Shown here: positions 21,001 through 27,000 of the stretch, piece by piece | How positions within the stretch are numbered: the stretch's first letter is position 1 | How the letters are laid out: each line of letters starts with the position of its first letter | Source: an uncultured Verrucomicrobiae bacterium | GTDB lineage: Bacteria; Verrucomicrobiota; Verrucomicrobiia; Chthoniobacterales; UBA10450 | Assembly (NCBI GenBank): GCA_963815455.1 | Contig: CAWFGO010000002.1 | Location: 160,001-224,000, forward strand | Direction: 5' to 3' | Length of the DNA: 64,000 nucleotides | Position numbers: made by a program

Positions 21001-24000
21001 GTCCATCGTGCAAATCCCGCCCAATCCGGCGCTGCTCCGCGTCGCTGATATTGACGATCTGATGCTCCAATCGCTGGGAACGCTCCAAGAGCGCGATGCG
21101 ACCCGCGGCGATTTCGCTTTTCGCCTTCAAGGCCGAGCCTACCAAAGCGATCACCAGGCACGTTCCCAAGTGCCGTGCAACCTCCCAGCTCTCCGTCCAT
21201 CCGCTCAAATCTGGATCATGGCTCATCCAGTCGGCTGCCAACGAAACCAACCCTCCAACAAGGCCACCAACTATCCCCATTTTCTTGCCGCAAAACCAGG
21301 ATATTACAAAAACCGGAGCCGCATAGAATGGCAGAAGCCGAATCTCGTACCCGGTGATGATATCGAGTATTCCGATCACCACCAGCAACGCCACCATCTC
21401 GGCAACAATAAAGGCGCGCGGCTGCTTCGAAAAAGCCTTGGATAAACTCATCTGGTAGGACCCGTAAGAGCTTTTTGAATATTACCAATCTCGCCATCAG
21501 AACGACAGATGATTTTTCAGAGGTCCATCCGGCCATCTCCCCTTGCCCTGTCGCTGCCTTTTCGAACCGGGGCCAGTTTCGAGGCCACGGGATAGTGACA
21601 GCGACGTCAAACCGCGTTTCCGACCGTCACTTTTTCTTAAATACTTCAACCGCATTCCAGGCTTCATCCGGCGGTTGCTGCTCGTATTCCAGCGCGCGAT
21701 CGAGATACATCTTGGCCAGGAAATCGTCGGGATAAAATTCGAGGAAACGCGACAATAAAATTTTCGCTTCCTTGAAATCGCGGGCCCGAAATTTCAGCAG
21801 CGCTTCTTCGTAGGTCTCGAGCCATTTCAACAATTCAGGATCGACACTGTCCTTTCGGGCGCCGATCAGAGTGAAAATGTCCACCGGCTCGGTCTTGCCC
21901 TTTACCTGGGCCCGGGCGACCGAGCGCAAATGGAATTCATCGCGCACGTTTTCCGCCACGGTCGGACCGAGGAGAATGTCCACACTGTAAACGCGGGTCA
22001 ATCCTTCCAGCCGCGAAGCCAGATTAACGGCATCGCCGATCACGGTGGGATCGAGCCGCTCATGCGGCGCATAGGAACCGATATTGCCGATCAGCGCTTC
22101 GCCCTGGTTGATCCCGACCCCGAATGCGAGCTGGTTGACCCCTTCGGATTTCCACGCCTCGTTCAATTTGCGCATCTCGGATCGCATCCCGAGCGCGGCG
22201 CGCACTGCTGCTTTACAGTCCTGGGCTACCCCGTGACTGCTCACATTCCCCCAAACCGCCATGATGGCGTCGCCGATGAATTTATCGAGCGTGCCGCCGT
22301 TATCGAAAACCATCGGCACCATGCAGCTGAGATAACGATTGAGCTGTTGCACGAGCGCAGCCGGGTCGGCCTTCTCCGATAGACTGGTAAACCCGACGAG
22401 ATCGGAGAAGAGAACCGTGACCGGTTTACGCGCACCGAGCAGGGAGCTGTAAAAGCCACCCGGATTTTCTAGGATCTCTTTGACCAGATTTTTCGAAACG
22501 TAACGTTCGAGGGTGCGCCGGGTGCGCAGTTTTTCGAGGCGCTCCAGCGTGTATTCTAGAGCGAGGCCCACCACGCCACTGAGAAGGAACGCCGTTAATG
22601 CCGGCACCACCATGATGAGAATACCCCAGTGATCGTAGAGGAAGCGCGACAGACCGAGATAAGTGCCACTGATCACGGTCAAGCTAATAAGATTAAGGGT
22701 GGCACGACGAACAATGGCCAGAACCACCCAGGCTAACAGGCCAAAAAAGACAATCGTGGCAAAGTCGACCCAGATCGACGTGTCATAAATGAACTCATGA
22801 TCGAGAAGAGCGGCCAGCGCGTGCAAGTGAATCACTGGACCGGGCGTTTCGGGGCTTATGGGTGTATCGAAGACGTCGTGTACAATCTGGGCTGACGACC
22901 CAATCATCACAATCTTGTCTTTGAAGAATTCACCGCTCTTGTAATTAGCCCGCCACAACGCAGGATCGAAAACTTCCCAAAGCTTGTATGGCAGGTAGGC
23001 GGAAGGATCGCTAAATCGAAAGATATGAGGTTTCAGGTCGCGCGGGATCGCGTCAGCTCGGCCCAGTTTAGTGGCCGCTCGAGCACTCAGCGACTCATAC
23101 GGAATTTCGTACGGTTCCGGCGGCTGCCGGGCCAGTTGCAGATCGGTCATCGTGTAACGCGCCGAACGGATCTTTTGATCGAGCGCATCGGGAAAGAAAA
23201 CAACGTACCCGACCCGATCGTCATCCAGTTGAGAGCCGACGCTACCGTCTGGGAGTCGCGGCGGCGGGATGATTGACGGACTTGGCGGAATTTTCTTGAC
23301 CTCACCAGTCTGCTGAAGGCCTAAGAAATCGAAGTTCGCGCCGATAACGACCTTGTCCCGATAGCGATCCAAAGCCGCTTGAAACTCGGCGTCTCCGTCA
23401 CCCGGTTTGTCGAAACTCATATCAAAAATGACCAGGCGCGCGCCCGACTGACACAATCGATCAAGCAGCAAGGCCCAAAACTCACGCGACCAGGGATACG
23501 GATGTGCCGTCATTAGTTGGAACGCGCGATTGCCCTTCACGTCCGCTGGATCAAACGGCTCAAAGGAAAGCGTGCTCTGATCGATCCCAAGGAAAACAAA
23601 ATCCTGATGCGTTCGGGTCTTACGTCCCTCTCTCCGAAGCAAATCCTCGAATCCCTGCTCGCTCCGCCACACCGTGGAGAGGAACGGAACACCGGCGGCA
23701 AAGTGCAAGCTAAGCACCAGCGCGGTGAAGAAAAAACAGATGCCCGCCAGGATCGACAATCGGTGCCGGTTGAGCCAATGCACAACGCCTAATATATATC
23801 AAAGCTGGCTAAAGCACCAGACTCCACGTCTCCTCCACCGGACGAATTCGCCGCCGTGCAAAATCGGTTGTCATTTTCCACCCGGCGTCTACTTTTCCCG
23901 CCCCACAAGCGATCCTTCCACCTACCCTGTGCACTGTGCGGGGTTATCGGCGAGCGAGGTCGGACGGATCGATAACAAAACAACAGCTCGCTGAAAGAGG

Positions 24001-27000
24001 AGTTCCCGCTGCGGCGGGGACGTAACAACGATGCCAAGAGCCACTAATTCGCCCGCCAGCCGGGCCCGACGCAAACGCGTCATTAAATCCGCCAAGGGTT
24101 ATCGCGGTCGCCGGTCGAAACTCTTCCGCTACGCCAAAGACGCGACGATGAAAGGCAAATACTGGGCCTATCGCGATCGCAAGACCCGCAAACGCAATTT
24201 CCGCATGCTCTGGGTGCAGCGACTCAACGCAGCTGCCCGCGCCAACGGGATGACCTACAGCCGCTTCGCCGAAGGACTCAAAGCCGCCGGCATCGGGCTC
24301 GATCGCAAAATCCTTGCTGATCTGGCCGTCACGGACGAGGCCGCGTTCAAGTCGATTGTCGATCAAGCCAAGAGCGCCCTGGAAAAGAAAAATAAAAAAG
24401 CGGCGTGATTCGTTGAAACGATGAAGCGTTGCAGCGAATTCGCTTCAACGCTTAAACTCTTTAACGCTTCATGCATCCACTCGAACAGCTACGCGACGAC
24501 GCTCTGCGCGAAATCGAATCCGCGGCGGATGAGAAATCGCTCGACACCGCGCGGGTGAAATATCTCGGACGCAGTGGCAGCATCTCGGCCTGGGGCGAAC
24601 AGATGAAGACCCTCGGCAAGGAGGAGCGGCCGATCGTCGGAAAACTACTCAACGAAGCGCGCATTGCCGTCACCTCGGCGCTCGATGCGCGCGCCGAGAT
24701 ATTCCGCGCCAAAAAAGAGAGCGAATCGCTGGCTAACATCGACATCTCGCTTCCCGGCACGCCGGCCGAGCGTGGCTCGTTGCATCCCCTCACCCAGATG
24801 CTCGATCGTGCGATCGATATTTTCCGGCGCATGGGTTTCGCCCTCGCTGATGGCCCGGATATCGAGACGGAATTCCATTGCTTCGACGCCCTCAATACGC
24901 CGGCCGACCACCCGGCGCGCAACGAGCAGGACACATTTTATCTTCCGGATGGCCGTCTCCTCCGGACGCACACTTCCACCGTTCAAATCCGAACCATGGA
25001 ATCGGCGCCCCCGCCGATTCGCGTGATCGCGCCGGGCGCGGCGTATCGCCGCGACGAAGTGGATGCGACCCACAGCGCCCAGTTTCACCAGATCGAGGGC
25101 CTCTACGTCGACGAAAACGTCAGCGTTGCGGATTTAAAAGGAACGCTCGAATTCTTCATGCGCGAACTTTTCGGTCCTGATACGGCGGTGCGCTTTCGGC
25201 CGCACTACTTTCCGTTCACCGAGCCGAGCTTCGAAATCGATGTCCAATCGAAAGCTCTCAAGGGCGGCGAGCAATGGATTGAAGTCTGCGGTTCGGGCAT
25301 GGTCCATCCAGCCGTGTTCGAAGAAGTAAATAAGGCGCGTGGCGATACCGCCTATGATCCGGAGAAATGGACCGGCTTCGCGTTCGGTCTCGGCATGGAT
25401 CGGCTGGCCATGATCCTGTTCGATATTCCCGATATTCGTCTCTTCGCGCAAAACGATCTGCGGTTTTTGAAACAATTCGCATGAATACGATTGGGCGAAC
25501 GGAAGACAGCCTGCCAGGCTGTCTCGGCGGGCAGGCTGCCAGCCTGCTGAATCGGCAGGTTGTTGAATCGACAGGCTGGCAGCCCGTCGGCCTAGACAGG
25601 CAAGCTGCCTGTCCTCCTTTATGAAATTCTCCGTTAACTGGCTCCGCGAATTTGTCGATCTTCCGGCGAGTGTCGATGCGCTGGCCGAATTGCTCACGCT
25701 CGCCGGCGTCGAGATCGAAGCGGTCGAGCAACGCGGAGCGAACATTGACAACGTGGTTGTCGCGCAAATCACTGCTTCATCCCAACATCCCAACGCCGAT
25801 CGTCTCACTGTTTGCGAGGTCGATGACGCCAGCGGAGCGAAGCGCCAGATCGTTTGCGGAGCGAAAAATTACAAAGTGGGCGACAAAGTGCCGCTGGCGT
25901 TGCCGGGTGCGAAATTGCCTAACGGGCTGGAAATCAAGAAAAGCAAACTGCGCGGGATCGATAGCGAAGGGATGCTTTGCAGCCCCATCGAACTCGGGTT
26001 CGGTCAGGAAGCTTCCGGGCTCCTGATTCTGTCGCCCGAGGCAAAAATCGGCGCGCCGATTGTCGATCTTTTTCCGAGCGATACGATTCTCGATGTCGAG
26101 ATCACGCCGAACCGCGGCGATTTGTTAAGTCATTTCGGATTGGCCCGGGAGATTGCGGCACTGACTCGGTCGTCATTCCGAGCCCCGAAAGCTTTCGGGG
26201 TCGAGGAATCCCGGGGCAAAACGAAAAATAGCGCGGCAGGATCCCTCGACGTTGCTCGGGATGACCGTAACATTAAGATCACCGCGCCGCATGAATGCCC
26301 ATTTTTTTCCGCGCGCAGGATCGACAATGTCACCGTGGGCCCGAGCCCCGATTGGCTCAGGGCAAAGATCGAAAGCGTCGGAATTCGCTCAATCAATAAC
26401 ATTGTCGACATATCGAATTTCGTTCTGGCCGAGCTCGGTCAGCCGACTCACGCCTTCGATGCCGATAAACTCAAAGGCGGAATTAACGTCCGGCTCGCGC
26501 GCGCGGGCGAAAAATTCCTCGCACTCGATGGAAAAACATATTCGCTCGGGCCGGATAATCTCGTGATTGCCGACTCCGAACGCGCGATTGGAATTGGCGG
26601 GGTGATGGGCGGTGAGGAAACGGGCGTTACCGCATCGACAAAGAAGGTGTTGCTCGAGAGCGCCTACTTTTTGCCGTCCAGCATTCGACGCACTGCGCGC
26701 AGTCTGAATTTGCCAAGCGACGCCAGCTATCGCTTTGAGCGCGGAGTCGATCCGCAAATGGTCCTGCGCGCGTCGCAAAGGGTCACTGAATTGATTCGCG
26801 AAATCGCCGGCGGAAAACCCGCCAGGGATGTCGCGACTGCCGGCGAACTTCCCGCCGATCCGGCGGACGTCTCGTTGAGCTACAAAAAATGCGATCAGGT
26901 TTTGGGAATCGAAATCAAGCCGAAGGCAATCGATGAAATCCTCGAAGGCTTTGGATCAAACAAGCGCTCGAGCAAGAGCAAGAAGGACGGAGGATCGAAA

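Follow-up and report, generated by a model that had tools for sequence, protein, structure and literature searches.

Leader RNAs of ribosomal protein L20 have repeatedly converged on mimicry of rRNA. According to passages of PMC7247131, an AA dimer and G-C pairs docking in the ribosome are conserved among known L20 leaders, and according to PMC1865079 L20 binds the H40/41 junction. In the Escherichia coli rpmI operator, L20 site 1 is a long-range pseudoknot and site 2 an irregular hairpin (PMC1888825, PMC3616713, PMC10931766). The Firmicutes leader RF00558 (B. subtilis) precedes infC and uses a terminator to attenuate transcription (PMC1865079, PMC3849166, PMC6097659; available sections). The L20-Deltaproteobacteria r-leader (Eckert and Weinberg 2020), also only a candidate, appears from its alignment rows to be an interrupted single hairpin of ~55–70 nt with no crossing helix, and the word "pseudoknot" is absent from the available portion of that paper (PMC7247131). 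A pseudoknot at an L20 site has a precedent in E. coli, and placement between rpmI and rplT has one in Deltaproteobacteria.

Here we describe a candidate leader in front of rplT in the window, by which we mean the whole 64,000-nucleotide stretch of DNA that was analysed. The candidate fold is a single H-type pseudoknot in which helix P1 crosses helix P3, the hairpin P2 lies within loop 1 and loop 3 is A-rich; a Shine-Dalgarno (SD) sequence follows downstream, with a further hairpin, P4, between it and the rplT AUG at 24031. An earlier note had described three hairpins and a long-range helix forming a pseudoknot at this place, and the coordinates below confirm it, the loop of P3 containing the P1 3′ strand so that both helices cross.

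23868..23873, + strand: putative −35 hexamer (loose promoter pattern)
23890..23895, + strand: putative −10 hexamer with a GC-rich discriminator after it; transcription would start near 23902–23903
23910..23923, + strand: P1 5′ strand (pseudoknot stem 1), conserved CU at its end
23924..23944, + strand: P2 hairpin, variable in sequence, filling pseudoknot loop 1
23947..23955, + strand: P3 5′ strand (pseudoknot stem 2), two-sided changes in 9/9 pairs
23956..23956, + strand: junction G, invariant, proposed to pair with C23984
23957..23971, + strand: P1 3′ strand, AG at its start, C23961 bulged
23972..23985, + strand: A-rich loop 3, with conserved AA (23982–23983), then C23984, then a variable bulged base (23985)
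23986..23994, + strand: P3 3′ strand, pairing with 23947–23955
23997..24002, + strand: SD-like GAGGAG; the genome carries the 16S tail CCUCCUUU
24002..24021, + strand: P4 hairpin, which separates the SD from the start codon (split ribosome-binding site)
24031..24408, + strand: rplT, ribosomal protein bL20 (TIGR01032, 151 bits)
24471..25484, + strand: pheS (TIGR00468)
25621..28017, + strand: pheT (TIGR00472)

NCBIfam confirms the rplT, pheS and pheT named earlier, and rplT is indeed apart from rpmI, which is on contig C1, and from infC, ~165 kb off on C2. Like the E. coli operator, the leader has a pseudoknot beside the ribosome-binding site, an AA and a junction resembling 23S H40/41, and translational control is presumed for it; unlike that operator, whose pseudoknot is long-range, partly inside infC and before rpmI, it is a local H-type structure of ~85 nt directly before rplT with a hairpin inserted. 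Long-range pairing from infC to the region before rpmI as in E. coli was not found, infC not being adjacent and our covariance model having no match at the E. coli leader (L155). With RF00558 it has in common a conserved pair of adenosines next to a two-helix junction of the kind bound by L20; the available accounts of RF00558 describe no pseudoknot, its covariance model gives no match to our leader, and the window leader does not precede infC and has no + strand terminator in a terminator scan, on which ground transcription attenuation was rejected. With L20-Deltaproteobacteria it shares the rpmI–rplT position (outside family UBA10450) and, in the alignment rows inspected, AAC opposite GA, and nothing else; that sequence and hairpin scaffold was not recovered by Rfam. 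The earlier statements that the leader is absent from Rfam and from the literature hold for the + strand at E ≤ 10, where no match was obtained, and in a renewed literature search, which found no published description.

Comparative support and distribution

The folding energy of the window leader alone is unremarkable (z = −1.35; 24 of 200 shuffles as good), so the case rests on comparison. In the window, P1 joins 23910–23923 with 23957–23971 (13 of 14 pairs standard), and its duplex is stable alone (−17.4 kcal/mol). Across leaders P1 has 10–15 pairs, P2 folds at ≤ −3 kcal/mol in 143/143 (median −10.6), unpaired loop 3 measures 8–17 nt (median 12) and the distance from the P1 3′ strand to AAC is constrained to 23–32 nt. 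In the alignment, 92.9% of cells are paired (slid controls 27–43%), with two-sided change in 12 of 14 pairs. In a test on the rplT tree, every one of the 10 best co-changing column pairs of 351 was a predicted pair; two belong to the pseudoknot helix P1, with 10 and 7 co-changes where the null means were 2.6 and 1.8. This test is biased towards the structure, because its parser demanded pairing plus four fixed letters and seven anchors were placed by hand. Within UBA10450 the four core pseudoknot pairs have no two-sided change (U-A 68/68, C-G 68/68, C-G 63/68, A-U 58/68), and their covariation is seen only outside this family. No column covariation is claimed for P2 and P4, because MAFFT misaligns both. 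Each of the two crossing helices of the H-type fold thus has covariation support, and the substitution pattern shows that the predicted helices P1 and P3 cross, with selection for pairing on both.

The covariance model found the leader in 80 of 101 genomes of the order Chthoniobacterales, one copy each and all ending ≤ 3 nt from the rplT start, and exactly once in the window genome. Held-out sister-order loci outside the model matched in 27 of 28 cases with filters off, each match ending at AUG, while 68 other loci gave no match at E ≤ 0.1, among them the E. coli leader and the rpmI and infC loci of the window organism. The location is therefore, as in L20 r-leaders, 5′ of rplT only (80/80 order matches, 27/28 held-out loci, the single own-genome match); a weak match in G225 (E 0.09) does not lie at rplT and was dismissed. 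Families f6 (0/10) and f15 (0/3) gave no covariance-model match, so the element is dispensable in some lineages. The 20 of 146 hits of a class-wide search with filters are no measure of absence because the filters lose sister-order copies. A strict descriptor parsed 68 of the 70 fetched family loci against 2 of 3,300 shuffles, and the two that it missed (L011 and L007) still bear the motif with a mismatch or deletion; used alone it matched 82 places in the window genome and is therefore not specific genome-wide, so the covariance model was used instead. Locus L003, from an unpublished genome (G014), is counted among the 70 but was excluded from alignments A1 and A2 and from the tree test, and no claim hinges on it. 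The leader-bearing groups are two large groups of Verrucomicrobia from soil, water and gut.

Directly upstream of rplT lies rpmI in 40/40 loci of other families of the order and 30/30 sister-order loci, against 0/70 in UBA10450; infC is adjacent in none of the former (0/40 and 0/30). Outside UBA10450 the leader sits between rpmI and rplT, and the earlier reading, which tied it to one family and to a stand-alone rplT-pheST operon, is not supported, given its presence in 80/101 order genomes and 27/28 sister-order loci. Judged from sequence comparison, the element is older than the rearrangement that separated rplT from rpmI, and the place between these two genes is the ancestral one. Where the flank sufficed, pheS follows rplT in 30/30 family and 14/14 order loci, and the motif is kept in 10/10 sister-order loci without pheS downstream (among 26 with enough flank); a functional link to pheST was rejected, as the motif is independent of pheS.

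A promoter scan of the window leader region gave nothing above its threshold, the putative −35 included, and a looser pattern was compared with shuffles in its place. TTG-N16-18-YAnnnT precedes 63 of 67 family leaders (61 of 1,340 shuffles), and a promoter pattern ends 8–14 nt upstream of the rpmI ATG in 63 of 71 loci (56 of 1,420 shuffles). Outside UBA10450, rpmI looks near-leaderless. A weak hint comes from RNA runs of a sister-order genome (not of the window organism), covered as contigs: four span the leader unbroken, of which one (X1) shows no start and the other three begin 5–6 nt inside rpmI and continue through the leader into rplT.

The split ribosome-binding site

P4 is present in 65 of 68 family leaders. 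With P4 looped out, the SD–AUG spacing is 7–12 nt in 64 of these 65, against 23–32 nt otherwise, and in the leaders that lack P4 (L047, L060 and L108) the SD stays 10–11 nt from AUG. This spacer role of P4 had been overlooked in the earlier note. The idea that P4 is a dispersed repeat was rejected, since the 2 strand matches of its core are a single palindromic place. To our knowledge, split ribosome-binding sites have so far been known mainly from T4 phage genes. In the accessible account of T4 genes 25 and 38, a hairpin between SD and AUG cuts 22–27 nt to 5–11 nt (PMC3014915), and P4 likewise shortens 23–32 nt to 7–12 nt; unlike the T4 hairpins, P4 follows a presumed protein-binding pseudoknot, serves a ribosomal-protein gene of the chromosome and is kept over most of the order.

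SDs are sparse in the window genome (74 of 740 starts at 4–13 nt versus 41 at 23–32 nt), and among 12 translation-gene starts only rplD has GGAGG at normal spacing. An anti-SD switch was rejected: in the lowest-energy fold of the window leader the SD pairs with the P1 5′ strand, yet only 31 of 143 leaders reach ≤ −6 kcal/mol for such pairing, and no conserved anti-SD pairing was found among the leaders (median −4.2 versus −16.3 kcal/mol).

The conserved junction and L20

Conserved letters concentrate at the P1/P3 junction (AA, then a C-G stacked on U-A and C-G), and over more than 140 diverse examples only about eight letters are left as the conserved core. The proposed pair G23956–C23984 is G-C in 61/61 rows of alignment A2 and never varies, so covariation does not bear on it. 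Following the AA, it would be the source of the rRNA-like geometry and had been overlooked earlier. The AA dimer beside the helix junction is conserved as in L20 r-leaders: in A2 the second A is invariant and the first is kept in at least 90%, and in the tree-test set the two are present in 142/143 and 143/143 leaders, the second A being imposed by the parser; L259 deviates at the C after AA. A second G-C pair beside U-A (G-C or C-G) occurs in 63/68 family, 16/44 other-order and 7/31 sister-order leaders.

In our model the junction has the topology of the L20 site at 23S H40/H41 with the G-C pairs inverted, a purely topological argument. We take A1009-A1010/G1011-C1150/U1004-A1151 (E. coli numbering) to be the residues of that junction, with its AA-docking geometry; a literature search for rRNA residue contacts of the L20 site found none. 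The organism's own 23S retains GGU/ACC and AA of this site. As to the consecutive G-C pairs of 23S H40, one C-G is invariant in the leader and the second variable, in the orientation opposite to rRNA. The inversion and the non-universal second pair count against a role of L20.

We nevertheless consider it likely that the leader is a new scaffold for an L20 translational operator, in which L20 binding and repression are what we infer. The shape echoes L20's docking site in the ribosome, so spare L20 would probably shut down its own production. The pseudoknot ends 11–20 "effective" nt upstream of the rplT start in most genomes. The AA of loop 3 would dock on the minor-groove side of the last P1 pairs and lead into the C-G stacked on U-A, the strand path of the 23S residues named above; free L20 would bind the P1/P3 junction once rRNA is limiting, and the bound pseudoknot, bordering the 30S footprint, would block initiation, comparable to the competition described at the E. 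coli pseudoknot. In the order of the window, looped-out P4 would bring the distant SD to working distance. The operator would lie between rpmI and rplT because rpmI is apparently transcribed with almost no leader, which leaves no upstream room, so that L35 would escape direct control; in UBA10450, rplT would have moved away from rpmI, carrying the operator behind its own promoter. Of the earlier proposal of an L20 autoregulatory element of new form, the pseudoknotted leader outside Rfam stands, the L20 role is the most likely one and the stand-alone, family-bound setting falls. If the L20 operator is real, this would be the first ribosomal-protein leader that we found described for Verrucomicrobiota and a further independent L20 scaffold, with near-leaderless rpmI offering a reason for its position. 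As the pairs are inverted relative to rRNA, whether L20 reads shape or base identity would be directly testable. H-type pseudoknots of any kind typically have an A-rich loop 3 that ends in AA, and such a loop need not be a protein site. Both helices hold without protein, so no folding switch driven by protein is evident.

Other readings of the leader

A rather unlikely elaboration makes the leader an internal ribosome-entry device and not simply an operator: in an SD-poor lineage with leaderless rpmI mRNA, the pre-folded pseudoknot and looped-out SD would recruit or position the ribosome at rplT, L20 gating entry via the H40/H41-like junction with inverted pairs. Given that other families of the class carry an unrelated hairpin at this place, L20 operators would then have been invented at least twice in one class after rpmI lost its leader.

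It is unlikely that the element acts independently of protein, as a constitutive translation enhancer (a structured standby or landing site for the 30S) or by stabilising the mRNA, for high rplT expression in an SD-poor lineage, with the junction conserved for fold or 30S contact. The leader does retain an SD in a genome that seldom uses one, its helices are stable on their own, and the pseudoknotted operator is, in the part of the report available, preferred by E. coli ribosomes (PMC10931766); a general enhancer should, however, recur at other highly expressed genes, whereas this one is found solely at rplT, once per genome, its junction is rRNA-like, and L20 leaders arose repeatedly.

Another ligand, be it L35, L21, an L20-L21 complex or a phenylalanyl-tRNA synthetase controlling rplT-pheST, is very unlikely. 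L21 binds adjacent to L20 in the 50S subunit, the rRNA mimicry is imperfect and pheS follows rplT wherever the flank sufficed in family and order, but the motif is kept at the ten loci without downstream pheS and in the family with rpmI elsewhere, leaving rplT as its sole constant neighbour.

Similarly improbable is a two-state switch in which P1 and P3 are alternative folds, flipped by a ligand or by the ribosome finishing rpmI to expose or hide the start region. The nested folds of the window leader are close in energy (−43.0 with P1 kept, −40.3 with P3 kept), and the ribosome-binding site adjoins the P3 3′ strand; against this, P1 and P3 have no nucleotide in common, the fixed P1-to-AAC distance goes with a loop 3 estimated to be long enough to cross P1, and conserved anti-SD pairing was not found.

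That an intergenic, compact pseudoknot with few invariant letters could be an RNA processing signal or small self-cleaving RNA parting rpmI from rplT is hardly credible, since it matches no Rfam ribozyme, is kept where no upstream gene is co-transcribed and is spanned unbroken by the four RNA-run contigs (contigs only).

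Structure and covariation of the rplT leader

The leader element lies between a divergent gene and rplT, whose closest relatives among named records belong to Ca. Udaeobacter, Chthoniobacterales and Spartobacteria. Its parts are arranged as follows.

21627–23783, minus strand: divergent cyclase-like gene (weak family hit only)
23910–23923: 5' strand of helix P1
23924–23944: hairpin P2, inserted in pseudoknot loop 1
23947–23955: 5' strand of helix P3
23956: junction base G, between the P3 5' strand and the P1 3' strand
23957–23971: 3' strand of P1
23982–23985: AA-C-A end of A-rich loop 3
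23986–23994: 3' strand of P3
23997–24002: GAGGAG
24002–24021: hairpin P4, followed by 9 nt and the AUG
24031–24408: rplT, downstream of the element, then pheS and pheT

The strand order, S1-L1-S2-S1'-L3-S2', matches that of H-type pseudoknots, with loop 1 here holding P2. The hairpins and crossing long-range helix described in the earlier note are borne out, and on comparative sequence evidence the pseudoknot is real and well supported. In a MAFFT alignment of 61 leaders, 92.9% of cells were paired (27–43% in slid controls) and 12 of 14 pairs showed two-sided change; RNAalifold independently recovered the nine P3 pairs, every one with two-sided changes. Related sequences may inflate covariation, and to allow for this, the changes in 143 anchored leaders were placed on a tree built from rplT (68 from the family UBA10450, 44 from the rest of the order Chthoniobacterales, 31 from a sister order). 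With a parser that required pairing and four fixed letters, seven hand-set anchors and a null devised for this analysis, predicted pairs filled the top 10 of 351 testable column pairs (z 4.5–13.1; best unpredicted pair, 3.4). Two of these belong to the pseudoknot helix; they co-changed 10 and 7 times against null means of 2.6 and 1.8, and in each of them 6 co-changes were compensatory. The junction Y-R pair ranked 52 among the 351, the terminal U-A pair became C-G in two related genomes, and the family taken alone showed no two-sided change in the core pseudoknot pairs.

Among the 67 family leaders whose flank was long enough, 63 were preceded by a promoter-like pattern (TTG-N16-18-YAnnnT), compared with 61 of 1,340 shuffles, and an extra foldable region lay 5' of P1 in 52/68 family and 31/31 sister-order leaders.

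Distribution and gene neighbourhood

rplT was detected in 74 of 81 family genomes, and 70 loci were fetched, leaving out G007, G036, G055 and G063. Of these loci, 68 fitted a strict descriptor, versus 2 of 3,300 shuffles. A covariance model made from 61 sequences gave a single match per genome in 80 of 101 order genomes, many of which had also supplied training rows, and all 80 matches ended no more than 3 nt away from where rplT starts; genomes without a match included families f6 (0/10), f15 (0/3) and f3 (0/1) and two 0.9-Mb genomes. In the held-out sister order (the best 30 of 46 rplT matches minus two duplicates), 27 of 28 loci matched with filters off, every match ending at the AUG. One named relative, Verrucomicrobiaceae record L223, carried the motif. 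There was no match at E ≤ 0.1 in 68 other loci, which came from other families and classes, from rpmI and infC of the source genome and from the E. coli infC-rpmI-rplT region, and which included six loci of the order where the motif is not clear and two where degenerate traces are left. L077 and L104 look like degenerate leader copies missed by the model; L104 (G103) retains its remnant in a reduced 0.9-Mb genome. Family f6 (L074, L078, L090, L109) has a short rpmI-rplT gap and lacks the element. L227 carries an intact pseudoknot about 80 nt from the start codon. The lack of an Rfam match reported previously holds for the leader's plus strand at E ≤ 10 and for the leader position in ten related loci.

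In the source genome rpmI lies on contig C1 and infC at 19 kb on C2. rpmI was directly upstream of rplT in 40/40 other-family order loci and 30/30 sister-order loci, whereas it was found in 0/70 family loci, for each of which 112–1500 nt of upstream DNA was inspected. None of these sets showed infC adjacency; a class-wide set of 40 loci showed it in 14. Among 26 sister-order loci with enough flank, 10 had no pheS downstream, and all 10 kept the motif. The earlier note had tied the leader to a stand-alone rplT-pheST operon; neither part of that link survives, as all 70 non-family loci have rpmI directly upstream and the motif persists without pheS.

A promoter pattern ended 8–14 nt ahead of the ATG of rpmI, most often at 10 nt, in 63 of 71 loci, compared with 56 of 1,420 shuffles; it lies upstream of rpmI in the sets L074–L113 and L256–L285 and also in the source genome (G000:C1:671405–671470). 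The rpmI leader would therefore span a few nucleotides at most, and rpmI appears leaderless or nearly so throughout both orders. In sister-order locus L125 (rpmI ATG at 742), three RNA-run contigs from three studies, one with adapter at its start, begin at 747–748 and extend through the leader into rplT, and a fourth covers the entire stretch; these starts are a weak hint of leaderless rpmI. In Akkermansia muciniphila, leaderless mRNAs account for about 10% of start sites (PMC4782308).

Start region and candidate L20 control

No terminator was found on the plus strand and no conserved anti-Shine-Dalgarno (SD) pairing in the leaders. An SD-like 4-mer follows P3 in 68/68 family and 40/44 other-order leaders, separated from the AUG by a hairpin in 65 and 39, respectively. 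Family SD-AUG spacing is 23–32 nt linearly and 7–12 nt in 64 of 65 with the hairpin looped out; L047, L060 and L108, without it, have 10–11 nt. In the sister order the hairpin occurs in 0/31 and an SD in 8/31. Median effective P3-to-AUG distances are 16 (family), 15.5 (other order) and 14 nt (sister order). The 30S footprint reaches about 20 nt upstream, and a protein-bound knot so near the AUG would clash with it. Such a clash would resemble the competition described for the E. coli operator (PMC10931766), and split ribosome-binding sites have precedents in T4 genes 25 and 38 (PMC3014915). SD use is low in the source genome (74 of 740 starts), as reported for some Verrucomicrobia (PMC10783764).

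Own and E. coli 23S rRNA alike read AGC-UAA-GGU, three bases, an AA-containing stretch and then helix 41, opposite ...C/U-ACC-GAA-GCU. In E. coli numbering, A1009-A1010 run into pair 1011–1150, which stacks on U1004-A1151, G1003-C1152 and G1002-C1153. In the leader junction, AA is followed by a C-G pair and its bulged base, and this pair would stack on U-A, then C-G, then a pair that varies; the strand path would be the same as that of the H40/H41 site, but the G-C pairs are inverted relative to 23S. The second G-C pair is present in 63/68 family, 16/44 other-order and 7/31 sister-order leaders; the junction G-C pair is invariant and therefore a putative pair. These three features count against mimicry, and so does the A-rich end of loop 3, which many pseudoknots have. 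L20 binds the H40/41 junction (PMC1865079, PMC1888825), and an AA dimer with two G-C pairs docking in the ribosome is common to published L20 leaders (PMC7247131).

Known L20 RNAs comprise two E. coli sites and Firmicutes RF00558 (PMC3616713, PMC3849166, PMC6097659), besides a Deltaproteobacteria candidate positioned between rpmI and rplT, like the order and sister-order leaders outside the family (PMC7247131). The scaffold here is unlike all of these, and the leader is outside every catalogued L20 family. The earlier proposal of a candidate L20 autoregulatory element of a new form is supported, and the leader probably works as an L20 translational operator. Literature searches, with subscription papers outside their scope, found no paper on this leader; "Verrucomicrobia" is absent from the text and supplements of PMC7247131, two supplements being covered in part, and the 30 ribosomal-leader candidates in the supplement of PMC11109978 may bear on novelty.

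Other conserved and repeated sequences

Other families of the class (f21, f24, f29, f31, f38 and f50), which we take to be Opitutales, carry a further conserved RNA, unrelated to the first, in the rpmI-rplT gap directly upstream of rplT (L128, L135, L142, L144, L148, L150, L153, L286–L296). In its long hairpin GGGU-RA faces GCG-ACCC, retaining the GGU/ACC orientation of 23S rRNA itself. The parse succeeded at 15 of 18 loci, and the RNA is visible in the other three, with 1 chance parse in 9 other-class loci; four of its loci had no Rfam match. It is a separate L20-leader candidate.

The genome's own 23S (G000:C1:532045–535337, L073) suggests insertions or intervening sequences, because its match is 3293 bases long, whereas the model has 2925 positions. 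In the window, the 62-nt rplT-pheS gap (24409–24470) contains a short palindrome but neither a leader peptide nor a terminator of the kind seen at E. coli pheM. A long near-perfect inverted repeat occupies the whole pheS-pheT gap (25497–25609); its Rfam microRNA matches fall far under gathering scores, and it is probably a REP-like repeat.
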